From Escherichia phage GeorgBuechner, in sequence record MZ501070: a stretch of DNA of 44,295 nt; one strand, 5' to 3'. Under the pieces are notes generated by a model that was given only the letters and a program-made list of their open reading frames with translations, made no database searches and was not told where the DNA came from. Each line of letters starts with the position of its first letter. Position 1 is the stretch's first letter. Made by a program: the position numbers and the translations under genes. This document shows positions 1,949 through 44,295 of the stretch, piece by piece.

Positions 1949-3469
1949 ATGACCGTTAACGTTGACAACCAGCACCCGCTCTATGCGCGCATCGCGCCAG
2001 AGTGGAAAATGATCCGTGATTGTGTGGCAGGGGAGCGCGCCGTGAAGGCGTGCGGTCCTTTGTACCTGCCACACCCAGCCAGTGGCGACAACACTGACCC
2101 GAAAGCACGGGCGCGGTATAAGGCGTACAAGCAACGCGCTGTATTCCTGAACGCCACCGCCCGCACACTTAACGCACTGTTAGGCGTTGCCTTTGCTAAA
2201 CCGGTAAGTCTGGACCTTTCTGGGGCGATGGCTGACCTGATTGACGACGTAGACGGTAGCGGTATGCCGCTGCCGCAACTCCTGCGCGGTGCTATGTCGG
2301 AAGTGCTGCAATCTGGCCGCGCGGGCTTTATGGTTGACTACGACCGCCAGGCGCATTTTGACGAACTGGGTAACGTAGTGCCGCAGACCGCCGCTGAAAT
2401 GGCGGCGCACCGCCCGCTTATCCGCCTGTACACGGCAGAACAGATCATCAATTGGCGGCAAACCCACGGGGTCGATACGCTAATTGTGCTGAAGGAAACG
2501 GACGAAATCAGCACTGAAGACCCGGACGACTTCGCAAACCACGAAGTAACAATCTGGACCGAGCTTCGCATGATTAACGGTGCGGCACACGCCCGCCGCT
2601 GGTTTTATAACGCTGACACGTCCGAGGTGCAAATGGACTTGCCGCGTGGATTTACCCGCACCGACCTTGTGCCGCTGGTGGATGCCGCCGGTAAAGCGCT
2701 GACACAGCTTCCGTTTTGCTGGTGTGGCGCGGTGGACAACAACGCAACGCCTGACGCCGCCCCGCTGGCGGATATCGCATCCATCAACATTAAGCACTAC
2801 AACGCCGAAGCGGACGTCGCCGAGATTGCGCACATCGTGGGTCAACCTACCCTGGTGGCAATGGGCTTGACTCAATCATGGGCAGACAAGAACCTGAAGG
2901 GCGGCATTGCCCTCGGTGCAACTAAGGGCGTCATTCTGGGTCAGAACATGGACGCTAAACTGATTCAGGCCGAGGAGCGCAACTTGTCTGTTGCACTGTG
3001 TGAGCGCCGCGAATTGCAAATGGCTAAACTGGGCGCGGCCCTGGTCGAGAAGGGGACCGCACCTAAGACGGCAACCGAGGCGGCCTATGATGCGCAGACT
3101 GATAACAGTATCCTGTCGCTTATTGCCGGTAACGTTGAGAAGGCTTTCAACCGTGCGCTGCAAATCGTCCAGCTATTCACGGGTGACACCGCCGACCAGC
3201 GTGTGACGCTGAATAAGTTCTACACCGAGATCACGGTTGATGCGCAGCTTATGACCGCGATGATGTCTGGTGTGCAGACTGGTACGGTCCGCCTGGCTGA
3301 TTTCATCAAGTGGATGATGGCGCAGGGCGTTATCGACGACTCGCAAACCGTCGAGCAGGTGGAAGACGAATTGCGAAATCAGAATCCATTGCCTCAAATG
3401 TCCCCTGATGCGGTAGAATCTACCGAAGAAGACCCGGACAAGGTAGCGGACAATGGCGAAGACAATTAA
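1949..3469 (+). CDS. Portal protein
   Basis: 506 aa ORF between terminase and head morphogenesis gene; RBS AAGGAAAA upstream; acidic C-terminal tail typical of portals. Confidence 0.8.
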   Translation: MTVNVDNQHPLYARIAPEWKMIRDCVAGERAVKACGPLYLPHPASGDNTDPKARARYKAYKQRAVFLNATARTLNALLGVAFAKPVSLDLSGAMADLIDDVDGSGMPLPQLLRGAMSEVLQSGRAGFMVDYDRQAHFDELGNVVPQTAAEMAAHRPLIRLYTAEQIINWRQTHGVDTLIVLKETDEISTEDPDDFANHEVTIWTELRMINGAAHARRWFYNADTSEVQMDLPRGFTRTDLVPLVDAAGKALTQLPFCWCGAVDNNATPDAAPLADIASINIKHYNAEADVAEIAHIVGQPTLVAMGLTQSWADKNLKGGIALGATKGVILGQNMDAKLIQAEERNLSVALCERRELQMAKLGAALVEKGTAPKTATEAAYDAQTDNSILSLIAGNVEKAFNRALQIVQLFTGDTADQRVTLNKFYTEITVDAQLMTAMMSGVQTGTVRLADFIKWMMAQGVIDDSQTVEQVEDELRNQNPLPQMSPDAVESTEEDPDKVADNGEDN

Positions 3470-5003: not shown

Positions 5004-5768
5004 TTAGCGCGGAATACCGCAAATCTCGTTTAGTGTTTTCACGTCCAGCGCCACCGCCGTGGACTTCGGCTTGTCCGGGTAAGGAATGAACTGTTCCACT
5101 TCAGGCCACGCCTTGATCAGCTTCTTATCGGTATTGTGCATATCCAGCACGCCGGTAACAGTTAGTTTGAACGCGTCATACTTAGCACGCAACTCACGGC
5201 GGGCCTTGTCGTTACGGTCCAGGCGCTTACAGAAATCATGGTCCGCCGGGTAGTCTATACGACCGCGTGGTATATAGATCGGCAGCGCTTTCCCGTCGTC
5301 GTCGACTTCGCACACTGACGCTAACAAAATTTCCTCATACCCTGGCACAATATCGCCGAGATCGGGAGACAGTTTATTCATGTATTTATACTCCCAGTAT
5401 CCGCGATGTACTCGGAATCGGTGTCCGTCTCCGCTCAATGACACGGTACGGACGTTTCCACCTGCGTTGATTTCGAAAGTGGCGTCGTAAACGCTGCCTA
5501 TACCATATGGGTTGTCGGCGTCATGTCTATACGTCGCCTTATTGGTGTACACACAGACGCCGTACATCTTCGACGGGTCATCGCCGATTTCTTCAATGCG
5601 CTCACGTAGCTCGGCGAACGTATGAATGCCTTCCGGCATACAGTCCAGCGTAATGGCGTACGCCAGATTTCGAGAGTCCATCATGATTGATTTGGCTTCG
5701 GTCGCGATTTCGTGGTCGCGCAGGATGTTAGCCAGAATCTGGTTTTTAATGTCTTTTGTCAGTCTCAT
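5004..5768 (-). CDS. Hypothetical protein encoded in reverse orientation inside the head gene cluster (moron-like accessory gene)
   Basis: 254 aa from ATG at 5766-5768 (MRLTKDIKNQ...) with SD ACGAGGA; the longer track ORF 5004..6215 is a low-complexity N-terminal extension overlapping the scaffold gene and is rejected; no recognisable motifs. Confidence 0.6.
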   Translation of the reverse strand: MRLTKDIKNQILANILRDHEIATEAKSIMMDSRNLAYAITLDCMPEGIHTFAELRERIEEIGDDPSKMYGVCVYTNKATYRHDADNPYGIGSVYDATFEINAGGNVRTVSLSGDGHRFRVHRGYWEYKYMNKLSPDLGDIVPGYEEILLASVCEVDDDGKALPIYIPRGRIDYPADHDFCKRLDRNDKARRELRAKYDAFKLTVTGVLDMHNTDKKLIKAWPEVEQFIPYPDKPKSTAVALDVKTLNEICGIPR

Positions 5769-5790
5769 TTTTGTGTCCTCGTTGTTGGTG

Positions 5791-5813
5791 TGCAACCAAT
5801 ATATGCAACCAAT
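5791..5813. promoter_or_regulatory. Tandem pair of TGCAACCAAT motifs in divergent intergenic region
   Basis: TGCAACCAAT at 5791-5800 and 5804-5813; on the minus strand reads ATTGGTTGCA x2 directly upstream of the SD of gene 5004..5768. Confidence 0.5.
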
Positions 5814-5916
5814 ACGAGGATTGCAAGCGAATTTTGCGATTATTTTTATCGCTGATAATATTAGAAGCGTGAAGTCGAGCGGGTGGCCCGCTCTGCCACA
5901 ATCCCAGGGGGATAGC

Positions 5917-8831: not shown

Positions 8832-9425
8832 GTGGCTGAAGTCTACTCATTCGCCGCCACTATTGCTACGTGGGTGGATAAGACGAAGGAGAACAACGAT
8901 AAGGCGGTGCGGGCGTACGGGATGCAAATACTCGGACGCCTTATTGAGATCTCCCCGGTGGGCGACCCTCGCCGGTGGAAGATTAACAAGGCTTATGCAA
9001 TGGCCCGCCAGCACGCGAACAAGGTGAACGCAGCACAGCGCCGCAAGAATGGCGGCAAACTGAAGCGCGGGCAGAAGAAGCACGCCAGTGTGCTCGTCTC
9101 ATTCAAAACTAAAAATGGCAACGTCACGTTCCGCCAGCGTGGCTGGGCCGCGAAGAATTACACCGGCGGACGCTTCCGGGGAAACTGGCAGGTGACGTTC
9201 GACCGCCCTGCTGTCGGCGCTATTGACCGCGTGGACAAGGCCGGAACGGCAACATTAGCCGCGGGGCGTGAAGTGCTGGCGCATTACGATTCCGGTGAAT
9301 ACGGGTCGATCTGGTTTACTAACAATGTACCGTATGCCCAGCGACTGGAATATGGCTGGAGTAAACAAGCGCCGTCGGGGATTGTTCGCGTCGTAGCGGC
9401 AGAAATTAATTCGAAGGTGAAATAA
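8832..9425 (+). CDS. Putative neck / head closure protein
   Basis: 197 aa, GTG start with SD AAGGGG; gene order in head-tail joining block. Confidence 0.4.
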   Translation: MAEVYSFAATIATWVDKTKENNDKAVRAYGMQILGRLIEISPVGDPRRWKINKAYAMARQHANKVNAAQRRKNGGKLKRGQKKHASVLVSFKTKNGNVTFRQRGWAAKNYTGGRFRGNWQVTFDRPAVGAIDRVDKAGTATLAAGREVLAHYDSGEYGSIWFTNNVPYAQRLEYGWSKQAPSGIVRVVAAEINSKVK

Positions 9426-9847
9426 TGAGCAATACTCTAATCCGCAAGGCGCTTAACAGCGTAGTAGAAGAATTATCGGTTAGCCTGAGCACTAGCACGC
9501 GCCCGATAAAGGTTAACTGGGAGAACGTGAGCGGCGACCACGCAAACGGCAGCGGTGTCTACCTGGAACCATATCTGCTTCCGGCCCCTACCCAGTTTGT
9601 GGGCTTCCAGCAGAAGGGCCGGATCTATGCAGGCGTGTATCAGATTGCCGTGGTATTTCCTGCGGGCACGGGCACACAGTATGCGAGCGAACTGGCGGAC
9701 GCCATTGCGACGTCAGACAAGTGGCAGGCCGTAAGGCTTACCGGCGCTGCATTCCAGCTTCAGGACGCGCCATACACCAGTTCAGTGATTGAGGATGTTG
9801 ACCGCGCCCGCATCGTGGTTACAGTGCCCTATTCCTGTTGTGCCTGA
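9425..9847 (+). CDS. Putative tail terminator / tail completion protein
   Basis: 140 aa ORF immediately upstream of major tail protein; ATGA-type overlap with preceding gene. Confidence 0.45.
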   Translation: MSNTLIRKALNSVVEELSVSLSTSTRPIKVNWENVSGDHANGSGVYLEPYLLPAPTQFVGFQQKGRIYAGVYQIAVVFPAGTGTQYASELADAIATSDKWQAVRLTGAAFQLQDAPYTSSVIEDVDRARIVVTVPYSCCA

Positions 9848-11384: not shown

Positions 11385-11418
11385 GCGGGACAAAACGGGA
11401 CGTCCCGTTTTGTCCCGC
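11385..11418. repeat. 34 bp perfect palindrome GCGGGACAAAACGGGAC|GTCCCGTTTTGTCCCGC
   Basis: Read directly from sequence; an imperfect second copy lies at about 11462-11498; each is followed by a TGCATACCTAYTCA...TGCATAAACT segment. Confidence 0.8.
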
Positions 11419-11527
11419 ACCTGCAAAACTGCATACCTACTCACTCCCATTGCATAAACTCAAAACGGGACAAGCGGGACGTCCCGTTTTGTCCCGCCCT
11501 GTAAATGTGCATACCTATTCAGATTTC

Positions 11528-11702
11528 GTGCATAAACTAGGCGGGACAAAAAGCGGGACAGACAAGGGGCGGGACAAAGCGGGACAGCACCCCGTCCCCG
11601 CCAGTGCTGCCGCGGGTTTCAGCCGATCGGGACAAGCGGGACAAACCCCAGTCTTTCAGACTAGACGGGGGTCAACGGCCCCCCTCGTCTGAGACTGAAT
11701 AA
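11528..11702. repeat. Copy A of a duplicated ~175 bp non-coding element: GCGGGACA iterons plus terminal imperfect hairpin
   Basis: GCGGGACA boxes at irregular 10-16 bp spacing, then CCCAGTCTTTCAGACTAGACGGGGGTCAACGGCCCCCCTCGTCTGAGACTGAATAA; near-identical to 38938..39112. Confidence 0.8.
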
Positions 11703-11765
11703 GATTCGTTTTAAAATCGCTGATACAATGTCAATCGGCAACTGCATAAAAAAGGGGACTGCATA

Positions 11766-21612: not shown

Positions 21613-21634
21613 AGGCCCCGAAAGGGGCCTATTT
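21613..21634. terminator. Bidirectional stem-loop between convergent genes
   Basis: AGGCCCC-gaaa-GGGGCCT; stop codon of the minus-strand lipoprotein gene lies at the edge of the stem. Confidence 0.5.
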
Positions 21635-21847
21635 GCAGGTTGTGCTTTTGAAATGGTCAACTGACACATACTGGAAGTTAAACGGGTATCCCGCCCTGAG
21701 CATTTTGTGGCCGCTAAAATCCGCGACCCCAAACACGGGGACTGAGTAATCCATGCCGCTATTCTGGTACGTCGCGTCGCAGACTTTAGCTGGCATGTTG
21801 GCACAACCGGACAAAAGAACTGCACAAATCATAATTAAAGTTTTCAT
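21629..21847 (-). CDS. Small lipoprotein, candidate receptor-blocking superinfection-exclusion protein (Llp/Cor-like)
   Basis: 72 aa from ATG 21845-21847 with SD AGGGGA; signal peptide MKTLIMICAVLLSGC with lipobox LLSGC; two further Cys in the mature part; convergent with tail genes and adjacent to the fibre gene. Confidence 0.6.
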   Translation of the reverse strand: MKTLIMICAVLLSGCANMPAKVCDATYQNSGMDYSVPVFGVADFSGHKMLRAGYPFNFQYVSVDHFKSTTCK

Positions 21848-21878: not shown

Positions 21879-21906
21879 GTATTACACCGCTCAATCAAGA
21901 ATGCAA
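21879..21906 (-). promoter_or_regulatory. Candidate sigma70-type promoter for the lipoprotein gene
   Basis: Minus strand reads TTGCAT - 16 nt - TAATAC about 30 nt upstream of the ATG; the -35 overlaps an ATTGGTTGCA motif. Confidence 0.35.
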
Positions 21907-21911
21907 CCAAT
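21902..21911. promoter_or_regulatory. TGCAACCAAT motif immediately upstream of the tail fibre SD
   Basis: aTGCAACCAATttACGAGGAtttagctATG; motif 17 nt from the fibre start codon. Confidence 0.5.
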
Positions 21912-24375: not shown

Positions 24376-24897
24376 TTATTTCAGTGCGCTACGTACCAGT
24401 GTTTTTTCCATGTTGCGGAAGTCTTCCGGCGTCATGAGGATCTTGGACCCATCCTCGCCAGTGAGCACGACCATCGGCTGGACGTCCTGGGATACGACGC
24501 CGAAATTGGCGGCTTTGACAGTCTTGCCCGCCGATGCCGAAGGATGCCACGTTCCGCCGGTGGCGATGGGCCAACCTTTAAGGCTGTCGTATTGCGCTGC
24601 CGTTGTATCGACCTGAATCTCATCATGCACGGTCATGTGGGATTCGCCCAGCAAGGCCGCATACGCTACCAGGTCGACGATATTGTCTTCCTGGTGCTTA
24701 CGGTGCTGGCGCACCAGCTTCAGGCAGATCAAGAAGGTCCAGGCTTCTTGCTCGGTAAGGTCGCGACCGGTAAGCGCGTTAAACACGGCGGCAATTTGTT
24801 TCGCGCTGCGTTCCTCTTTCGCGTTGTCATAGCCGTTTTCTTTTCCGCGCTGTTCCATAGTGGTGGCGGCGTTTTTGCAGTATTCGTATGCTTTCAT
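24376..24897 (-). CDS. Hypothetical protein
   Basis: 173 aa ORF; upstream leader contains hairpin GTTGGGGGC-aatacc-GCCCCCAAC (24916-24939) and motif palindrome. Confidence 0.5.
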   Translation of the reverse strand: MKAYEYCKNAATTMEQRGKENGYDNAKEERSAKQIAAVFNALTGRDLTEQEAWTFLICLKLVRQHRKHQEDNIVDLVAYAALLGESHMTVHDEIQVDTTAAQYDSLKGWPIATGGTWHPSASAGKTVKAANFGVVSQDVQPMVVLTGEDGSKILMTPEDFRNMEKTLVRSALK

Positions 24898-24950
24898 GAT
24901 GTTTTTCCTTTTTAGTTGGGGGCGGTATTGCCCCCAACGAGTTAACTATA

Positions 24951-24988
24951 TTGCAACCAACCTATTGGTTGCAAGTGAATTTTGCAAC
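24951..24988. promoter_or_regulatory. Inverted-repeat motif TTGCAACCAA-ccta-TTGGTTGCAA followed by conserved TTGCAAGTGAATTTTGCAAC element
   Basis: Perfect 10 bp arms; the downstream 20-mer matches 5821-5840 (TTGCAAGCGAATTTTGCGAT) at 17/20; on the minus strand TTGCAA-18 nt-TATAGT could act as a promoter for gene 24376..24897. Confidence 0.45.
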
Positions 24989-26233: not shown

Positions 26234-26476
26234 TTATTTAATCTCCGTAGTGCGGATTTCCTTGCGCGGAATAAATTTGCCGTCTTTCTCGACCCAGCAA
26301 GTTCCGTAACGCCATTGGGTATTACGGCCTGTTTGCTCGGCATATACGGTCTTGCATTCATAGCGTTCCGTATAGTAAATAGCCGCGGTAGGTACGAAAA
26401 TACAAACGGCAAACATGAGGGTGAGTATCACCCAAAATCGAAGGTCGCCGTCGTAGTCGAAAAATAATGATCTCAT
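26234..26476 (-). CDS. Small membrane protein
   Basis: 80 aa; TM segment FWVILTLMFAVCIFVPTAAIYY; SD GGAG. Confidence 0.45.
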   Translation of the reverse strand: MRSLFFDYDGDLRFWVILTLMFAVCIFVPTAAIYYTERYECKTVYAEQTGRNTQWRYGTCWVEKDGKFIPRKEIRTTEIK

Positions 26477-26530
26477 CGTGTTGTCTCCAGGTATTAAAAA
26501 GGGCGTCCAAACCGGACACCCTTAATGTAC

Positions 26531-26557
26531 TGCAACCAATCTAATTATGCAACCAAT
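26531..26557. promoter_or_regulatory. Tandem pair of TGCAACCAAT motifs between minus-strand genes
   Basis: TGCAACCAAT at 26531-26540 and 26548-26557; on the minus strand followed by an imperfect hairpin plus T-run and the SD of gene 26234..26476. Confidence 0.5.
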
Positions 26558-29275: not shown

Positions 29276-29449
29276 TTATTCTTGTTCTGCACGATAGCGG
29301 CGCTGCCGTTCGCGCTCTTTCTTATTGCGGCACGATTTGCACTCGGCCCGATGCCCGTCCGGGCTGCGCGCAGTCTTACCGGTGTATTTGTGGAACTGAG
29401 ACAGCGGCTTGATACAACCGCAATTACTACAACGTTTTTCTTCAATCAT
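29276..29449 (-). CDS. Small zinc-finger-like protein
   Basis: 57 aa from ATG 29447-29449 (MIEEKRCSNCGC...ECKSC); two Cys pairs and a basic C-terminus; SD GAGGA. Confidence 0.45.
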   Translation of the reverse strand: MIEEKRCSNCGCIKPLSQFHKYTGKTARSPDGHRAECKSCRNKKERERQRRYRAEQE

Positions 29450-29489
29450 TTCTAAAATCCTCGATAGTGCTAACCGGCACACTATACCG

Positions 29490-29768
29490 CTACGCGACCA
29501 ATTCAGCAACCAATAAATCACAGTCGGCTATGTTGTCGATAACGCGAACGTCAGCACCGCGGCGGGCCATTCGCTCATGTTCACGTACCTGGTGCGGCTT
29601 TGGTTTTCCTCCGGGGCGCTTCACTTCTACGAATACCACTTTGCCGTTTATGATTATAATCAGGTCGGGCGCGCCTGAGCGCCCCTCCCATATCACCTTA
29701 CGGCAGAATCCGCCAACCGCTTTCACCAGCTTCATCAGGTGACTTTGTACCTTGCCTTCTGGTGTCAT
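29490..29768 (-). CDS. VRR-NUC domain nuclease
   Basis: 92 aa; GAPDLIIIINGKVVFVEVKRPGGKPKPHQ matches the D ... E-V-K core of VRR-NUC proteins; start overlaps polymerase stop. Confidence 0.65.
   Translation of the reverse strand: MTPEGKVQSHLMKLVKAVGGFCRKVIWEGRSGAPDLIIIINGKVVFVEVKRPGGKPKPHQVREHERMARRGADVRVIDNIADCDLLVAELVA
29495..29514. promoter_or_regulatory. GCGACCAAT / GCAACCAAT motif pair at the 3' end of the VRR-NUC gene
   Basis: GCGACCAATtcaGCAACCAAT overlapping the last codons of 29490..29768. Confidence 0.35.
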
Positions 29769-35978: not shown

Positions 35979-36008
35979 ATAATAGATTGGTTGCAGGATG
36001 GGCGTCAA
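35979..36008 (-). promoter_or_regulatory. Candidate leftward early promoter
   Basis: Minus strand TTGACG - 18 nt - TATTAT; the spacer contains TGCAACCAAT; about 190 nt upstream of the first leftward gene. Confidence 0.4.
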
Positions 36009-36125: not shown

Positions 36126-36154
36126 TTGACACCGTGCAGTTTTGGGTGTAGTTT
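36126..36154 (+). promoter_or_regulatory. Candidate rightward promoter
   Basis: TTGACA - 17 nt - TAGTTT about 30 nt upstream of the regulator gene. Confidence 0.4.
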
Positions 36155-36185
36155 CGTTGGCCATTAACCAACTGAGGGCAGAGCA

Positions 36186-36515
36186 ATGAATGTAAACGAC
36201 GCAATCGAAATGTTAACGAAGACTGTTTGCAGTGAGACAAGCCGGTCATGGGCATATACCGATGCCGTGGGGGCGGTGTTATTTGAAATCGAACGACTGC
36301 GGCTTACCGAAAAAGAATTGCGCGCGAAGCTGGAATTACTCAACGGTACGGCAGCCAGCAAGCTGCAAAAGCACAATGAAGAAATGGAAGAATACAAAAA
36401 ACAGGTTATCCGTTTGCGCGAGGAGGGAAAGTCATGGGCGATGATCGCTGAGCTAACCGGAATTAATCAGAGCACCGTGCGCTCATGGGTACGCAATAAT
36501 AAAACTTCTAAGTAA
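36186..36515 (+). CDS. Putative transcriptional regulator with C-terminal helix-turn-helix
   Basis: 109 aa; C-terminal KSWAMIAELTGINQSTVRSWVRN is HTH-like; central coiled-coil-like segment; first gene of rightward operon. Confidence 0.5.
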   Translation: MNVNDAIEMLTKTVCSETSRSWAYTDAVGAVLFEIERLRLTEKELRAKLELLNGTAASKLQKHNEEMEEYKKQVIRLREEGKSWAMIAELTGINQSTVRSWVRNNKTSK

Positions 36516-36525
36516 GGCAACGGCA

Positions 36526-38790
36526 ATGAGCTTAATTAAATTTGCGGTAACACGACCCGCTAAAAAAGGCGAAAAAGCCAGGGCGGAAAACTTCCAGATG
36601 ACAACCGATGAGTTTTTCGAATTTATCAATGATGCGAAAGAAATCTCCTCGGTGCATATCAACAAGACGGAAGATAAAGCCGAGTATGCGCGCCGCAAGC
36701 GTAAGGCCGATGGGATTGTGGCTTATACTCGTGACGGCTTACGTCGCAAGACCAGTGCGGTGGACCGCTCGATCCTGTTCTTCGATATAGACCGTACCGA
36801 CACCCGCACCTTACGCCGCTGCCGTAAGGCGTTCATCGACGCGGGGCTGGAACACGTATTTCACACCACTACCGGCGACCGCCACCCGCTGAAAGGCGGC
36901 ACGCGTTGCGCCCGTTTCCTGGTGCTCACCGATAGGCCTGTACCTGCTGAAGACCTGGGCCGCGTCCAGTATGCACTATTACACCAACTGGGCCTGTCAG
37001 ATGTGGACTTCGATGATTGTACGAAAGACACAAACCGCCTTATGTACCTGCCTCACCAGCAATCGGTTGTCAAGTGTCACTACGGCAAACGTGCCCGCGT
37101 CCGTCGTCTGCTTCGCCTGGCGGATAAGCTGGGAGTGGAAAAAGAGGAAGTACGACGCGAACTGACCCAGGGCGATGACGGCGTGGCGGACGGTATTCTG
37201 GATTGGTGCTTCCAGGCAGGATTCGAACCGCTGTCGTCCGGTCGTGGTTATGAAGTACCGTGCCCGAACGAACACCTGCACAGTGGTGAAGGGTCCACCG
37301 CAATCATGGTTAAGGATGGCGAGATCCGTTTCAAGTGTATGCACACCGGCAACGAGTGTTGCTCGGAACTGAACAGACACCAGCACCTGGCGCTACGTCT
37401 TATCGGGATCCCGGACCACCTGAACGTCGAACCGCACAACATGTCACGTAAGCAAATCGCCGCCATCCTCCCTGGACTGGACGACGAGGAAGTGGAATCG
37501 TGCTATGCGCATATCGTTGATGCGGTCGGAGACGGCGACGAGTACGGCGTATGTACCGACGCTGACCTGGATAACGAACCGGTCGCACTGTTCAGTAAGC
37601 ACGACCCGATCATAGAAGGCCTGGTCAACTTCAAATCGACCTGGTATATGGCTGGCGAATCGAACATCGGTAAATCGTTCTACGTGCTGGGGCAAATGGG
37701 TGCGGTTGCCGCGGGGATTCCGTTCGGCGGTGCGAAGGTCGTCCAGTCCCATTGCTTCTATTTCGACGCGGAAGGTGGCGAAGCCTCCAACCAGCGTAAG
37801 GAAGCATTGCAGATCAAATACGAGCACGACCTCGACAAGCTGCACATTATCGATCTGCAATCACGCGGCTGGGATATCACCAGCAAATCCGGCTTGCGTG
37901 AAGTTATCAGCTTCATCAACCGCACCGCTAACGGCGAACCGGTTGGCCTGGTGGCGTTCGACTCACTCAACCAGACGGTTGCGCTGCGGTCCGCCGATGC
38001 CAAACCGTTCGACGAGAACAACGCCAGCGATATGGGCGAAGTGGTCAAGGCGCTGAAGGCCATCGCGGAAAATACAGGCGGCAGTGCGGGCGTTATCCAC
38101 CACCCGGCGAAGGGTGCAAACGGCAGCAGATCTCCCCGTGGGTCCGGCGCGCTGCATGGCGCTGTCGATTCTGCGTTCTTCCTGGAGCAACCGGACGACA
38201 ATCAGCCGGGCCAATTGAACCTGTATCACGAAAAGGCACGTAACGGCATCAAGCAAGCGCCACGCGGATTCGTCCTGCTCAAGTGCAAGGTTAAGGTGGA
38301 TCTCCGCAAGTCCGAAGCGTTCGAGTCACACCAGTCCACCAGCACCGGGCCTGACTTCGGCGATGTGGTTGCCGGTTGGGACGTCAAGCCAATTGCATCC
38401 ACACCACGCGACGAGACTCTGTACCTCGTACCGGTCGCCCTGGCACCGTTCGCCATCGAACAGGCGAAGGCCGCGGGCAAAGCAGCAGTTAAGGAAGAGA
38501 ACGCAGCAGGACCGCGCAACGAAAAAGAGAAAGTGCTTTATGCGGCGCTGGAAAAACTGATGGAAGATAACCCGGACCATACCGGATTCAGCAAATCGGC
38601 AATTGTCCGCCAGGCTGGGCTTGCGAAAGGTGGCACATCGACGAAGGCAATTGACGATATGGTCGAGCGCGGAGTGCTAGGTTTTTATACCGATCCGCAC
38701 ACCGGGGCCATCTATGGGTCGTCGAATATCGTCATTAAAACGAATATACCAATCACGCTTTCTGCGACCGATGACGATTTAAAAGATTAA
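36526..38790 (+). CDS. DNA primase/helicase-like replication protein with P-loop ATPase domain
   Basis: 754 aa; Walker A GESNIGKS and Walker B-like VAFDSL in the central region; large N-terminal domain of primase type by position and size. Confidence 0.65.
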   Translation: MSLIKFAVTRPAKKGEKARAENFQMTTDEFFEFINDAKEISSVHINKTEDKAEYARRKRKADGIVAYTRDGLRRKTSAVDRSILFFDIDRTDTRTLRRCRKAFIDAGLEHVFHTTTGDRHPLKGGTRCARFLVLTDRPVPAEDLGRVQYALLHQLGLSDVDFDDCTKDTNRLMYLPHQQSVVKCHYGKRARVRRLLRLADKLGVEKEEVRRELTQGDDGVADGILDWCFQAGFEPLSSGRGYEVPCPNEHLHSGEGSTAIMVKDGEIRFKCMHTGNECCSELNRHQHLALRLIGIPDHLNVEPHNMSRKQIAAILPGLDDEEVESCYAHIVDAVGDGDEYGVCTDADLDNEPVALFSKHDPIIEGLVNFKSTWYMAGESNIGKSFYVLGQMGAVAAGIPFGGAKVVQSHCFYFDAEGGEASNQRKEALQIKYEHDLDKLHIIDLQSRGWDITSKSGLREVISFINRTANGEPVGLVAFDSLNQTVALRSADAKPFDENNASDMGEVVKALKAIAENTGGSAGVIHHPAKGANGSRSPRGSGALHGAVDSAFFLEQPDDNQPGQLNLYHEKARNGIKQAPRGFVLLKCKVKVDLRKSEAFESHQSTSTGPDFGDVVAGWDVKPIASTPRDETLYLVPVALAPFAIEQAKAAGKAAVKEENAAGPRNEKEKVLYAALEKLMEDNPDHTGFSKSAIVRQAGLAKGGTSTKAIDDMVERGVLGFYTDPHTGAIYGSSNIVIKTNIPITLSATDDDLKD

Positions 38791-38865
38791 ATGCTGCGCG
38801 CATTGGTTGCCGATATGGGGATTCCCATATCGCTAAAAGATTAAATCTTGCGCGCATTGGTTGCC
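38779..38865. repeat. 32 bp direct repeat x2 flanking a palindrome, overlapping the primase stop
   Basis: TAAAAGATTAAATGCTGCGCGCATTGGTTGCC and TAAAAGATTAAATCTTGCGCGCATTGGTTGCC (2 mismatches) with GATATGGGgattCCCATATC between them; a third ATTGGTTGCC at 38891-38900. Confidence 0.8.
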
Positions 38866-38937
38866 ATTTTGAGTGTTTTTAGCTGGTCGTATTGGTTGCC
38901 GTGTAGTGTAAATATAATGCATAGTTATGCAGTTTTA

Positions 38938-39112
38938 GTGCATAAAGTAAGCGGGACAAAAAGCGGGACAAACAAGGGGCGGGACAAAGCGGGACAGCAC
39001 CCCCGTCCCGCCCCGGATGGCGCGGCTTCCAGAGGAGCGGGACAGGCGGGACAAACCCCAGTCTTTCAGACTAGACGGGGGTCAATGGCCCCCCTCGTCT
39101 GAGACTGAATAA
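38938..39112. repeat. Copy B of the duplicated ~175 bp GCGGGACA-iteron plus hairpin element
   Basis: Near-identical to 11528..11702 with a diverged central ~40 bp; ends in the same imperfect hairpin. Confidence 0.8.
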
Positions 39113-39171
39113 AATCCGGGGATTGCAAAATACACGGCAGCATGATGCGAAGCGCTGTCGTTGGTGAACTA

Positions 39172-39303
39172 GGCAACCAATGCGAGTTGCATTATGCTGA
39201 GTGAAAATGCAGTTTGCAGCCACAGCAGATAGCGATCAACTTTTTCATACGCATGATTAATATTGGTTGCATTCAGCCTGGCACCCTGCTAGATTGGTTG
39301 CAC
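39172..39303. promoter_or_regulatory. Cluster of three GCAACCAAT / ATTGGTTGCA motifs upstream of gene 39326
   Basis: GGCAACCAAT 39172-39181, ATTGGTTGCA 39262-39271, ATTGGTTGCAC 39294-39303 followed by CACCAACGAGAGGA and ATG. Confidence 0.5.
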
Positions 39304-39325
39304 ACCAACGAGAGGACCAAACAAA

Positions 39326-39805
39326 ATGAAATTTCCAGTAACCATCAAAGACGGTAAATCAACTATCACCTTCACCAGCAACGACCAGGGCACCTATGAA
39401 AGCGGGGCGACTTGCATGTCTACCCTGGACGATGTGATGATTCGTGTTAATTCCGGTAAAGCCTCGATTGTTGACGACAACACTAAGAAGGACCGAACAA
39501 TGAGAGCACTAATCTGGAATTACTCACTGGCCCTGGCAAAGCTGAACGAAGCGAAGGCGCTGAACGGCAACGTAGACCGTGCGCGCCAGTTTGCGACACT
39601 GGCACACCAGTCAATCATGTGTGCGCTAGACGATATGGACGCCAGCATGGATGGCCTGGGTCCGCTGCGTAAGGCAATCCATGAATACGCGCTGGCATTC
39701 TCCCGTGAGCGCCTGGCTTATCGCTTCGGTATTGGCGAGACGGCAGTGACAAACGTCGCCCGGATTAAAGCCCAGCGCGAACTATTCGCCCAGCTTGCGA
39801 AATAA
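39326..39805 (+). CDS. Hypothetical protein
   Basis: 159 aa; SD GAGAGGA; upstream leader nearly identical to that of minus-strand gene 5004..5768. Confidence 0.5.
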   Translation: MKFPVTIKDGKSTITFTSNDQGTYESGATCMSTLDDVMIRVNSGKASIVDDNTKKDRTMRALIWNYSLALAKLNEAKALNGNVDRARQFATLAHQSIMCALDDMDASMDGLGPLRKAIHEYALAFSRERLAYRFGIGETAVTNVARIKAQRELFAQLAK

Positions 39806-39814
39806 GGGGCCAAA

Positions 39815-40084
39815 ATGAGCCGTAGGCGCGCAAAACAGCTTTCGTGGAGCATCCCACTGCATTGCATACGAATATGGGCTAAGAATGCGGTTGAGGGCGA
39901 ATCGGTATTCTGGTGCTATCGCGACGATGTGAAGCCGTTGACGCAGACTCGCTACTTGCACCAGTTCGCAGCACAACACGATTTCAGGGTGCGGACTTCC
40001 TTGCAACCAATGGGAATACGTATTACATTACGCCGGAAGCCCGCCGTTGAGCGGGCAGGCAAACACTGGAGACTGAGCAAATGA
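39815..40084 (+). CDS. Hypothetical basic protein
   Basis: 89 aa, Arg/Lys-rich; SD AAGGGG. Confidence 0.45.
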   Translation: MSRRRAKQLSWSIPLHCIRIWAKNAVEGESVFWCYRDDVKPLTQTRYLHQFAAQHDFRVRTSLQPMGIRITLRRKPAVERAGKHWRLSK

Positions 40085-40233
40085 CACCAATGCAAAGGGC
40101 ACTAATGGCGGGATTCTCGCAGAAGTTTATTTCAGTAGACGCCTGCATAGCTGATTATGAGATGGACGGCATCGCTACGGTATGCGATGGCGACTATAAG
40201 ACTGTTGACGAGATTGAGGAGACTGAGCAATGA
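40081..40233 (+). CDS. Possible small acidic protein (50 aa)
   Basis: ATG 40081 within repeated junction GGAGACTGAGCAAATGA; ends in the same junction sequence at 40216-40233; not in the ORF track. Confidence 0.3.
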   Translation: MTPMQRALMAGFSQKFISVDACIADYEMDGIATVCDGDYKTVDEIEETEQ

Positions 40234-40784
40234 GATTACTATTCCGCCGCAAATCAGACGGGCGCATACTGAAGCCGATCCAGACCCTGGATTCCTACGT
40301 CCGCTTGCACCACGCGGCAAGCGATCGGGTATTCCGCGCATCGAAGGGCACATTGCCGCAGTTCTTCGAAGTCCTCACACACGATATCGAGCGGGGCGAT
40401 GTTCTGCGTGATATTCGCGACGGGCAATTGTGGGTCGTGGAGCACACCCACCGGCACGGCTTGCGGTTGAAGTCCGGCATCTTGCTAAAGGGTATGACGT
40501 ACTTCGGACTAATCAACTACGAGCGAGTGGGCCGCAAATACAGCCTTCGCAAACACCAGCAGCATGAGCGCGTGGAGTTCCGCAAGTCGCAGCCCGCGTA
40601 TGCCACCTACGACGCGAGCAAAGTGCAGGAGCCGATCCGCCAGGCCACGCGTGAGATAGTCAATCGCTTTGATGCCGTGACGAATGCACAGCGCCAGGCG
40701 CGGGAATACGGTGTGGGATTTATCCGTGTCGAACCAGACGGCAGCATGAAGGCCATCGACCCGCGCTCGGTGATTCTGAAATGA
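40230..40784 (+). CDS. Hypothetical protein
   Basis: 184 aa ORF, ATGA-coupled to the upstream small ORF. Confidence 0.5.
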   Translation: MRLLFRRKSDGRILKPIQTLDSYVRLHHAASDRVFRASKGTLPQFFEVLTHDIERGDVLRDIRDGQLWVVEHTHRHGLRLKSGILLKGMTYFGLINYERVGRKYSLRKHQQHERVEFRKSQPAYATYDASKVQEPIRQATREIVNRFDAVTNAQRQAREYGVGFIRVEPDGSMKAIDPRSVILK

Positions 40785-42816: not shown

Positions 42817-42826
42817 TTGCTTGACT

Positions 42827-42860
42827 CGCAACCAATTATCAGACTATACTGCGACCAATC
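42827..42860. promoter_or_regulatory. Tandem pair CGCAACCAAT / GCGACCAAT upstream of a strong SD
   Basis: CGCAACCAATtatcagactatactGCGACCAATcaACGAGAGGAG followed by ATG 42881. Confidence 0.5.
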
Positions 42861-42961: not shown

Positions 42962-43022
42962 CCCGCCACAATAGGGACCGTGGTATATTGTCCTCGGTCC
43001 CATAATCTGGAAGTGAATTAAT

Positions 43023-44165
43023 ATGCACCCGCAAACTAAAATCACCGACGAGCAATTGATCGCTGAGCTGCAATCCGGCACTACCTCGAAAGATATTGCT
43101 AAGAAGTACGGTCTTTCCCTCCGAAATGTATACATGCGAAAAGCCCGCCTGTCGAAGAAAGGGATTGGTCACGGCAACGATGCCGTAATCCGTAAGCGCG
43201 TTGCCGATGGTTTTGGCGTTAAGCGTGTCTCAGCCCTGGTGCGCGGAAATGGCGAAGAGGTCATGTCGTGGGTTATCACTGAGCAGGACAAGGAGCGCCA
43301 GCTTGAAGCAATGCGCGCCGTTGTCGAGGGTATGAACAGCGAAATCACACCGGCAGCACCAGTAAGCGCCCCGCCAGTCCCGGTCCAGGCGCTCGACCTG
43401 CTCAACCTGTACACTGTGTCAGACTTCCACCTGGGCATGTTGGCCTGGGGCGAGGAGACTGGCGAAGACTGGGATATGGCGATTGCCGAAGACTTGTTCT
43501 ACCGCTGGTTTGTCGAAGCCTTCGCACGCGCACCGGACGCAGGCACTGCCGTTATCAATATCCTCGGAGATATGGCGCATTTTGATAGCCTCGATGCCGT
43601 CACTCCTGCCAGCGGTCACGTACTGGACGCAGACACCCGCTACCAGAAGCTGGTCCGCTACATGATTCGCATGGTGCGCAACGTGGTGGAACTGGCGCTG
43701 CAAAAGCACCACAAAGTCAAACTGCTAATCGTCCAGGGGAATCATGACGAGTCTGGCATGATTTGGCTGGCTGAAATGTTCAATACGCTGTATGAGAACG
43801 AGCCGCGCGTTGATGTGGACACGTCACCGGACGTATACAAAATGGTGCAGCACGGCAAGACCACGCTGTTCTTCCACCACGGGCACAAAGCGCGCTTCGA
43901 CGCTATTGAAACCGTCATGATTTCCAAATTCAGACAGGCTTTCGGGTCCAGCGAGTACAGCTACGCACACATAGGCCACTTGCACCACCAGAAGATTGTA
44001 GAATCCCGCAACATGATTGTTGAACAGCACAGGACGCTCGCAGCGAAAGACGCCTACGCCAGTCGTGGCGGTTGGATGTCCGGTCGCAGCGCCAACGTCA
44101 TTACCTACAGCGCCAACTACGGCGAAGTAGCGCGCTTAACCATTAGCCCGGAAATGTTGAAGTAA
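43023..44165 (+). CDS. HTH domain fused to calcineurin-like metallophosphoesterase
   Basis: 380 aa; N-terminal HTH-like TSKDIAKKYGLSLRNVYMRKARL; phosphoesterase motifs SDFHLG, GDMAHF, GNHDE, HHGH. Confidence 0.6.
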   Translation: MHPQTKITDEQLIAELQSGTTSKDIAKKYGLSLRNVYMRKARLSKKGIGHGNDAVIRKRVADGFGVKRVSALVRGNGEEVMSWVITEQDKERQLEAMRAVVEGMNSEITPAAPVSAPPVPVQALDLLNLYTVSDFHLGMLAWGEETGEDWDMAIAEDLFYRWFVEAFARAPDAGTAVINILGDMAHFDSLDAVTPASGHVLDADTRYQKLVRYMIRMVRNVVELALQKHHKVKLLIVQGNHDESGMIWLAEMFNTLYENEPRVDVDTSPDVYKMVQHGKTTLFFHHGHKARFDAIETVMISKFRQAFGSSEYSYAHIGHLHHQKIVESRNMIVEQHRTLAAKDAYASRGGWMSGRSANVITYSANYGEVARLTISPEMLK

Positions 44166-44212: not shown

Positions 44213-44295
44213 TGCCTGTTATAATCCACCTTAGATGGCAGGGCCGTCTCCTATGTTGCCGATGGTCGGCGCATATGCACAAAAGGGCTTATATC

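Follow-up and report, generated by a model that had tools for sequence, protein, structure and literature searches.

The stretch of DNA analysed here, a window of 44,295 nt (MZ501070), is the near-complete genome of a Dhillonvirus, that is, of a lytic E. coli siphophage of the HK578/SO-1 type. For one 6.3-kb segment of the window, 157 phage records showed 80-95% identity, and there was no match to a plasmid. Escherichia phage Oekolampad/Bas18 has a colinear genome, and nt 1 of the window corresponds to a start at the small terminase gene. Genes are read rightward from 39.3 kb via lysis and terminase into the structural genes. The replication module, from 36 to 23.7 kb, is read leftward, and a small helix-turn-helix (HTH) gene together with the primase-helicase gene is read rightward at 36186-38790. 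We found neither an integrase nor an immunity repressor in the annotation of relatives or among the scanned proteins.

An earlier note on this DNA had pointed to two genes on opposite strands, one in the head module and one at 39.3 kb, which are preceded by a near-identical 35-nt leader. We refer to the two upstream regions as cassettes A (minus strand) and B (plus strand). Their features, with promoter elements and putative operators as predicted from the sequence, are the following:

5004..5768, minus strand: nmad5, a reverse-oriented gene in the head module, coding for an Nmad5-domain protein (Pfam PF18757, E=6e-56)
5798..5826, minus strand: promoter A, with -35 TTGCAA at 5826-5821, a 17-nt spacer holding a distal copy of ATTGGTTGC at 5813-5805, and -10 TATATT at 5803-5798 (scan result TTGCAA-17-TATATT)
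5784..5800, minus strand: proximal putative operator of promoter A, ATTGGTTGCACACCAAC, which overlaps the last 3 nt of the -10 and is identical to the 17-mer of promoter B
39262..39270, plus strand: distal 9-mer of promoter B, ATTGGTTGC, whose 3' end forms with the next bases the predicted -35 TTGCAT at 39267-39272
39290..39309, plus strand: predicted -10 of promoter B, TAGATT at 39290-39295, fused to the putative operator ATTGGTTGCACACCAAC at 39293-39309
39310..39328, plus strand: 3' part of cassette B, with the Shine-Dalgarno sequence GAGAGGA, an A-rich spacer and the ATG; elsewhere it varies with the downstream gene
39326..39805, plus strand: 159-aa ORF that joins a 57-aa insertion in frame to the 'MRALIWNY...' protein found throughout the genus (phrog_9839)

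Two promoter cassettes and their exchangeable genes

The near-identity of the two elements was readily recovered. Both sequences quoted in the earlier note lie directly upstream of the two genes, and they have the exact 17-mer ATTGGTTGCACACCAAC in common. At locus B, on the plus strand, the two copies of ATTGGTTGCA span 39262-39271 and 39293-39302; CACCAACGAGAGGACCAAACAAA comes next, and then the ATG at 39326. At locus A, on the minus strand, the copies span 5813-5804 and 5800-5791, and CACCAACAACGAGGACACAAAA leads on to the ATG at 5768. The second upstream copy that had been claimed for each gene is thus present at both loci, and the offset of 14-31 nt given for it needs correction at its lower end, as the start-to-start distance is 13 nt at the 5.8-kb locus and 31 nt at the 39.3-kb locus. 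When the 60 nt located 5' of each ATG were aligned pairwise, the local score was 25; random pairs of 60-mers drawn from the window had a mean score of 7 and reached 21 at the 99.9th percentile. Outside the 17-mer, the likeness between A and B consists only of a GAGGA Shine-Dalgarno sequence and an A-rich spacer, with indels.

The full arrangement of cassette A reads TTGCAA - N7 - ATTGGTTGCA - TATATTGGTTGCACACCAAC - aacGAGGA - N8 - ATG, and that of cassette B reads ATTGGTTGCAT - N17 - TAGATTGGTTGCACACCAAC - GAGAGGA - N9 - ATG. In both cases, the proximal element is joined directly to the -10 hexamer and extended as a 17-bp imperfect palindrome, ATTGG-N7-CCAAC (ATTGGT-tgcac-ACCAAC). The two cassettes represent a single promoter subtype, in which the distal putative operator overlies or adjoins the -35 and the proximal one is fused to the -10. 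The term leader is a misnomer for most of the 35 nt, which are promoter and not transcript, since the predicted -10 (TATATT or TAGATT) shares three bases with the 5' end of the proximal copy. Transcription is predicted to start near the A of TTGCA, which is near A39302 in cassette B and near 5791 on the minus strand in cassette A, and only the last 24-25 nt or so of the supposed leader would be transcribed. In the window, TTGG-N7-CCAA occurs four times, against 0.65 expected, and three of these four occurrences lie directly 3' of a -10, namely at A, at B and at the promoter of the HTH/primase operon.

A search of IMG/VR with the 17-mer ATTGGTTGCACACCAAC returned exactly these two loci per Dhillonvirus genome; the remaining matches all fell in one conserved block of unrelated contigs, which is probably coding. 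The conserved unit in nearly all Dhillonvirus sequences examined is the 20-mer TA(T/G)ATTGGTTGCACACCAAC, and the Shine-Dalgarno part varies with the gene behind it. A single A-to-G change was seen in the B copy of one genome. The earlier note had held that absence of the cassette from relatives carrying the same genes would speak against it. We observed no such case: the cassette was present in every relative examined, even where the downstream gene had changed.

The genes behind the cassettes are far less constant. In other genomes, the gap between cassette A and nmad5 contains an extra ORF, whose product is a phrog_24635 protein of 109 aa, a RusA-like/beta-clamp-like protein of 172 aa or another protein, of 105 aa. 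SO-1 lacks nmad5, and the gene that follows its cassette A, gp7, bears the annotation 'possible moron' (GQ502199). The usual cargo of cassette B is the conserved phrog_9839 protein of about 101-108 aa, and in SO-1 and HK578 an additional ORF of 59 aa is inserted behind this cassette. Since the 20-nt block is near-invariant while the ORF behind it differs between genomes, A and B can be seen as fixed sockets for expression, the cargo of which is exchanged. We also considered the cassette-B gene as Ksap1, the trigger of KpAvs2, and rejected this identification, the syntenic ORFs of SECphi18 lacking the published residues K30/L39/L47/T50/F60.

Contrary to the earlier note, the two genes are not both of unknown function, as the Nmad5 domain of the 5004-5768 product attests. 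The nmad5 gene of Dhillonviruses has been reported as the trigger sensed by the Tmn defence system (2025 study, PMC11846954). The proposal of an anti-defence set is consistent with both slots being hot-spots at which related phages exchange small accessory genes, and one of them carries this reported trigger. A role of the two genes in early host takeover, also put forward, is conceivable. On the other hand, the element is by no means special to these two genes, because its 9-mer core, ATTGGTTGC, lies in about a dozen promoters, including those of replication-gene operons. Co-regulation of the two genes through a shared cis element is plausible; its restriction to two genes is not, and any regulon would be genome-wide.

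A 9-bp element in promoters throughout the genome

The exact 9-mer ATTGGTTGC has 16 copies in the window, against 0.27 expected, and 14-16 copies in each of five other Dhillonvirus genomes. Allowing up to one mismatch, ATTGGTTGCA was found at 19 sites (3.3 expected), and it is among the two most over-represented 10-mers of the window. A weight matrix built from the sites describes an asymmetric A-T-T-G-G-T-(T/c)-G-C, with near-invariant positions 1-9 and a weak preference for A at position 10. The flanks carry zero information, so that the edges of the motif are sharp. By inspection, 17 of the 19 sites are non-coding, the exceptions being one non-conserved mismatch copy and a copy at the 3' end of a gene, which belongs to promoter K. 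The loci beyond cassettes A and B that bear the motif or the palindrome are listed here by coordinate:

21879..21911, minus strand: promoter C, ATTGGTTGCAT as -35, a 16-nt spacer and TAATAC; before the 72-aa gene 21629-21847
24945..24974, minus strand: promoter D, inverted copies TTGCAACCAAT-ag-GTTGGTTGCA, then TATAGT; before gene 24376-24897 (scan result TTGCAA-18-TATAGT)
26524..26557, minus strand: promoter E, ATTGGTTGCAT (-35), N7, ATTGGTTGCA (spacer), TACATT; before gene 26234-26476
29481..29514, minus strand: promoter F, ATTGGTTGCT (-35), ATTGGTCGC (spacer), TATAGT; before gene 29276-29449
35979..36008, minus strand: promoter G, heading the leftward operon of replication genes, TTGACG-18-TATTAT; the spacer holds the reversed motif TGCAACCAAT at 35986-35995 (scan)
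36126..36172, plus strand: promoter of the HTH/primase-helicase operon, TTGACA-17-TAGTTT-c-GTTGGCCATTAACCAAC, with an invariant palindrome GTTGG-N7-CCAAC at 36156-36172
38802..38899, plus strand: three direct repeats ATTGGTTGCC, at 38802, 38856 and 38891, just 3' of the primase-helicase stop codon
39173..39181, minus strand: isolated inverted copy of ATTGGTTGC, between the repeat block and promoter B; conserved
40001..40029, plus strand: promoter K, the reversed motif TTGCAACCAAT as -35, 17 nt, TACATT; at the 3' end of gene 39815-40084
42821..42859, plus strand: promoter H, TTGACT-18-TATACT, with reversed CGCAACCAAT abutting the -35, TGCGACCAAT across -10/+1 and leader CAACGAGAGGAG (scan)

We compared six Dhillonvirus genomes, including the window, the most distant being LM40P1 at about 70% nucleotide identity. 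The motif sites are syntenic in all six, down to the identity level of LM40P1. Five loci could be aligned across all six genomes; in these, 71 of the 72 columns within the motif (98.6%) were invariant, compared with 377 of 529 columns (71%) in other intergenic DNA (Fisher p=5e-9). In the pooled count, the 'variable' motif columns mostly reflect the presence or absence of a whole copy and alignment gaps, with few one-base variants such as TTGC to TCGC. The distal 9-mer of promoter B is invariant in the six genomes and the 17-nt spacer next to it varies. At promoter K, the motif and the -10 are kept in LM40P1 despite diverged flanks, and at promoter C this phage has two motif copies and TATATT. 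The paired copies are irregularly spaced, at 12, 13, 17, 23, 31, 35 or 54 nt, and show no simple cooperative geometry.

Nearly every copy falls inside a sigma70-type promoter: upstream of a gene we found -35- and -10-like hexamers 16-18 nt apart, and in the multi-genome alignments these hexamers are conserved as well, the other spacer bases drifting. An independent consensus promoter scan picked up A, D, G and H; for B, C, E, F, K and the promoter of the primase operon, the assignment comes from the alignments. The motif occurs in either orientation and in three classes of position. In the first class it lies over the -35, its 3' end providing TTGCA(T/A), at B-distal, C, E-distal and F-distal, and in reversed orientation at K and at the outer copy of D. 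In the second class it lies in the spacer, adjoining the -10 at A-distal, D and E-proximal and in mid-spacer at F-proximal; reversed copies of this class are those of G, 3 nt from the -10, and H-distal, which abuts the -35. In the third class it lies across -10/+1, at A-proximal and B-proximal and, reversed, at H-proximal. The layout of the HTH/primase-helicase promoter matches that of A and B. Four copies (38802, 38856, 38891 and 39173-39181) are outside recognisable promoters; the direct repeats at 38802-38899 number one to three in relatives and have no clear promoter there.

None of the candidate promoters of structural and late genes contains the 9-mer. Most of these promoters are of conserved extended -10 types, such as that preceding terS (TGtTATAAT, 44217-44225), that preceding the tape-measure gene (TGaTACAAT, 11721-11729) and that preceding the gene of a 380-aa protein (TGgTATATT); in LM40P1, the terS promoter has been re-created at a shifted position. 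The absence of the 9-mer from structural and late promoters indicates that the motif marks one promoter class and not promoters generally.

The exact motif is confined to Dhillonvirus. In 28 kb of the outgroup Cornellvirus VSiA there was no copy of the 8-mer, and the outgroup Serratia phage Tsm2 has 12 copies, against 1.2 expected, mostly within coding sequence. An IMG/VR search for paired copies (ATTGGTTGC-N4-30-ATTGGTTGC) found, outside Dhillonvirus, no dispersed-copy locus with proteins in common with the window. The multi-copy loci that it did return outside the genus were mostly tandem repeats with periods in multiples of 3 nt (9, 21, 27 and so on), which is consistent with coding repeats, and single matches were about as numerous as estimated for chance. 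In the searchable literature, we found no mention of the motif, of Dhillonvirus promoters or of a transcription map, and no TSS or RNA-seq data for any Dhillonvirus.

Possible modes of action

We propose that ATTGGTTGC is probably the asymmetric operator of a sequence-specific DNA-binding protein, and that its copies constitute a predicted genus-wide regulon embedded in promoters. This reading is suggested by a sharp-edged 9-bp element that is invariant where promoters usually tolerate change, that is placed between -40 and +3 either way round, and that is frequently paired. As would be expected of dispersed operators, the copies are far above chance in the promoter cores (-40 to +3) of separate units, and they are under selective constraint beyond that of the flanking non-coding DNA. 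If the elements are operators, repression is the likelier sign of their action, because the copies overlap the polymerase footprint, including that of promoters with a near-consensus -35. The operators would sit in the cores of sigma70-type promoters serving early/middle genes (replication and small rightward genes) and accessory genes. These promoters are presumably recognised by host RNA polymerase without help, as neither a phage RNA polymerase nor a sigma factor was found in annotation or domain scans. A protein bound at -40 to -31, -23 to -14 or -9 to +1 would then exclude or trap the polymerase. Coordinated repression of this kind would shut off or throttle the motif-bearing promoter class, and the structural-gene promoters, which lack the site, would escape it.

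Dispersed sites of this kind are known from other phages. The C1 repressor of the temperate phage P1, which maintains lysogeny, reads a short asymmetric operator of 17 bp that is scattered over many promoters, singly or in pairs and in either orientation, and that overlaps core elements, all within one regulon. The Dhillonvirus sites are likewise dispersed, single or paired, in both orientations and over the promoter core. Unlike P1, Dhillonvirus is lytic; moreover, its putative operator is 9 bp long and unrelated in sequence, and its cognate protein is only a candidate. A second parallel is provided by the stoperators of mycobacteriophage L5, asymmetric sites for gp71 that lie in short intergenic regions, in one orientation with respect to transcription, and block elongation between genes. 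Both phages have many copies of one asymmetric site in siphophage intergenic regions, conserved among relatives. However, the Dhillonvirus sites are inside promoters, and the single orientation typical of stoperators is broken by the reversed copies of G, H and K and by the inverted pair of D. Operators embedded in phage promoters are classical, and the Dhillonvirus motif would add a further case, not a new principle.

Several of the -35 hexamers that the motif itself supplies are weak (TTGCAT, 3/6), an observation that counts against repression and could point to activation instead. The motif would then be a positive element, through which a phage or host activator, or a factor of the sigma-appropriation type, recruits polymerase to promoters with a poor -35, in a middle class similar to that of the MotA box. 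We regard this as unlikely. It is true that in B, C, E, F and K the motif is the only -35-like hexamer (TTGCAT, TTGCAA or TTGCTG, 3-4 of 6), and that the candidate 109-aa protein described below matches a sigma-70 region 4 profile. The MotA box of T4 has a fixed position around -30 and a fixed orientation, acts positively together with AsiA, and defines middle promoters. As at the MotA box, a phage motif replaces or overlaps the -35 of sigma70-dependent promoters, but the Dhillonvirus 9-mer occupies three positions, the spacer and -10/+1 among them, and both orientations. Furthermore, G (TTGACG, or TTGACA in relatives), H (TTGACT) and the primase promoter (TTGACA) have a near-consensus -35, yet the motif or the palindrome lies inside their core.

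It is quite improbable that the sites are instead bound by the replication initiator. On that view, the repeats at 38802-38899 would serve as iterons of the origin, and through the promoter copies transcription would respond to the amount of initiator, in the manner of plasmid Rep proteins or lambda O. The surroundings of these repeats do fit such a role: three direct copies are located immediately 3' of the primase-helicase gene, beside an iteron-like block of CGGGACA, and the HTH gene lies directly upstream of the primase-helicase gene. In addition, Tsm2 has four related copies (GTTGGTTGC/CTTGGTTGC) clustered within the 3' end of its primase gene. Against this, most copies are single or paired at precise promoter positions far from origin-like regions, and the direct repeats vary in number from one to three between genomes. 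An origin role leaves the placement in promoters unexplained. An initiator would, however, be compatible with the operator reading, as a single protein could have both functions.

We give very little credence to a host regulator of the GntR/FadR family, such as PdhR, that would read ATTGGT half-sites and thereby link phage expression to the metabolic state of the host. The PdhR box is (A)ATTGGTnnnACCAAT(T), with the core GGTnnnACC (PMC7660256). Written as AATTGGTnnnACCAATT (PMC7660256), the E. coli box has an ATTGGT half-site identical to that of the phage element, and the inverted partner ACCAA(C) is found in A and B. Nevertheless, inverted half-sites (ATTGGT-tgcac-ACCAAC) are present in the proximal elements of A and B only, and there the spacer is N5 and not the N3 of PdhR. 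The majority of copies have a single half-site, and the invariant TGC that follows it is foreign to the PdhR box. A true PdhR box is absent from the window, where TTGGTNNNACCAA had no match at up to one mismatch.

A block at the RNA level is just as doubtful. A hairpin in the 5' leader (UUGGU-UGCAC-ACCAA) would control translation or mRNA stability of the two cassette genes, and the 17-mer is indeed an imperfect palindrome; other leaders also carry stem-loops, some of them with a GTTGG...CCAAC base (promoter D). However, the predicted transcription start lies inside the palindrome and would leave its 5' arm untranscribed, and copies of the 9-mer also lie 5' of -10 elements and face either way with respect to transcription. 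No Rfam family matched at the gathering threshold, and at E<=1 there was only a chance-level match. The arms of the palindrome are invariant and offer no covariation to count. The adjacent repeat block folds only marginally better than shuffled sequences (z about -2).

Finally, it is most improbable that no trans-acting factor is involved and that paralogous promoter modules, spread by duplication or recombination, are conserved by shared descent only; A and D do have additional upstream sequence in common (GCAAAATTC(G/A)CTTGCAA), and a leader sequence common to A, B and H suggests module duplication, but the 9-mer is invariant at each locus while adjoining spacer bases diverge, its edges are sharp, and its position and orientation differ between loci.

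A candidate binding protein

If the 9-mer is an operator, as we favour, a DNA-binding protein would read it. Pfam and PHROGs scans of 30 proteins of the window revealed two HTH proteins only. One is the N-terminus of a 380-aa metallophosphoesterase (43023-44165); the other is the following:

36186..36515, plus strand: 109-aa protein with a C-terminal helix-turn-helix (Pfam HTH_23 6e-7, Sigma70_r4_2 2e-6)

The C-terminal half of the 109-aa protein, comprising a coiled-coil and the HTH, is invariant across genomes, and its N-terminus diverges. In CHD5UKE2, the N-terminal part has been replaced outright, the HTH and the motif both being kept. In an AF2 model (pLDDT 73), a long helix leads into a three-helix HTH that is predicted with confidence. 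A PDB sequence search and Foldseek returned no informative structural neighbour, giving generic HTH resemblance only. The protein was found only in Dhillonvirus. Both the HTH gene and the motif extend over the same range, the whole genus, as would any core gene, and hence their co-occurrence does not discriminate. The 109-aa protein is the best candidate reader of the 9-mer. It could equally read the second conserved repeat, CGGGACA, and the binder of the 9-mer may be a host factor.

More specifically, we can envisage, with considerable reserve, a scheme in which this one small genus-specific protein, expressed from its own palindrome-bearing promoter, binds the 9-mer at every -35-dependent early/middle promoter and at the origin-side repeats, and so shuts off the early programme. 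The structural promoters, mostly of the extended -10 type, would stay on, and cassettes A and B would be regulator-controlled sockets for accessory or defence-related genes such as nmad5. The prediction of about a dozen operator-bearing promoters, and of a second class without operator and mostly with an extended -10, amounts to a testable model of the temporal programme. This is of practical interest, as Dhillonviruses (HK578, SECphi18 and BASEL Bas14-18) are routine test phages in studies of bacterial immunity. Two fixed sockets for accessory-gene exchange, one of them driving nmad5, the reported Tmn trigger, would help to interpret defence-escape mutants. In phage engineering, they would indicate where to place cargo for natively controlled expression.

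The accessible part of the description of Sodalis phage SO-1 (GQ502199) refers to its repeat regions A and B in general terms, as direct, inverted and palindromic, and does not single out the 9-mer, its association with promoters or its distribution. Repeat region B of SO-1, annotated at 40178-40657, covers the intergenic stretch in which cassette B lies.

Repeat blocks rich in CGGGACA

The second over-represented 10-mer of the window, GCGGGACAAA, is present in 10 exact copies. Most of them cluster in two homologous blocks:

11385-11715: first CGGGACA repeat block
38905-39135: second CGGGACA repeat block

Each block spans about 210 nt, with a mean column identity of 86%, and contains 6-7 CGGGACA units that are themselves invariant. 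These units are preceded by TTATGCA(C/G) words, which by eye show a likeness to DnaA boxes. Each block closes with a G5-6/C5-6 hairpin set in an AGTCT/AGACT-rich element; the element is invariant, but the hairpin loop differs from genome to genome. One block sits after the primase-helicase gene, and the other occupies an unusual place between the tail chaperone gene and the tape-measure gene. In the record of Sodalis phage SO-1 (GQ502199), the blocks carry no annotation beyond 'repeat regions A and B'. A comparison with Rfam returned no match, and the RNA fold z-score of the blocks is around -2. Altogether, the blocks look like protein-binding iterons and possibly represent one or two replication origins.

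Other promoters and their leaders

A second class of promoters in the window displays a conserved extended -10 (TGnTAnnnT) and no recognisable -35, and is devoid of the 9-mer, ATTGGT(T/c)GC, proposed as the operator of early/middle sigma70-type promoters. Its members, together with further elements near promoters, are the following:

44217-44225: extended -10 promoter upstream of terS
11721-11729: extended -10 promoter upstream of the tape-measure gene
42981-42989: extended -10 promoter upstream of the 380-aa phosphoesterase gene
42975-43000: inverted repeat GGACCGtGG-TATATTG-tCCtCGGTCC
5834-5861, plus strand: sigma70-like promoter TTGCGA-16-TAATAT
26496-26522, minus strand: GC-rich hairpin followed by TTTTT

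The genome that diverges most has its terS promoter re-created at a shifted position. In the promoter of the 380-aa HTH/metallophosphoesterase gene, the -10 lies within the inverted repeat. This repeat is an operator in its own right, with no relation to the 9-mer, and may serve autoregulation.

The sigma70-like promoter serves the scaffold/capsid genes and is divergent from promoter A, the minus-strand promoter of nmad5. Within it lies an inverted repeat, GCGAT-N7-ATCGC, and the leader behind it has a conserved hairpin, GAGCGGGTGGCCCGCTC. The hairpin at 26496-26522, kept in six genomes, lies between promoter E (26524..26557, minus strand) and the start of gene 26234-26476. This terminator-like structure within a leader could be an attenuator, or the terminator of the upstream gene positioned past the next promoter.

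The reading frame behind cassette B

39326-39805, plus strand: 159-aa ORF preceded by cassette B

In this ORF, a 57-aa insertion continues in the same frame, uninterrupted by a stop codon, into the 'MRALIWNY...' protein, which lies directly behind cassette B in most Dhillonviruses. Oekolampad (Bas18) shows the same in-frame fusion layout, yet its annotation covers the C-terminal part only.

The motif in other phages

The 8-mer TTGGTTGC has no copy in 28 kb of Cornellvirus VSiA. Serratia phage Tsm2, an outgroup phage that belongs to the Guernseyvirinae and whose primase is 46% identical, has no exact copy of the 9-mer and contains the 8-mer 12 times genome-wide (1.2 expected). Four of these copies are antisense and fall inside 125 nt (9373-9495) at the 3' end of the primase-helicase gene. 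An unrelated 19-kb viral contig (IMGVR_UViG_3300038463_000167), whose proteins show no detectable similarity to those of the window, bears (cgccTA)ATTGGTTGCATC at least seven times, with copies facing either way, within a GC-rich, seemingly non-coding stretch (2794-3160).
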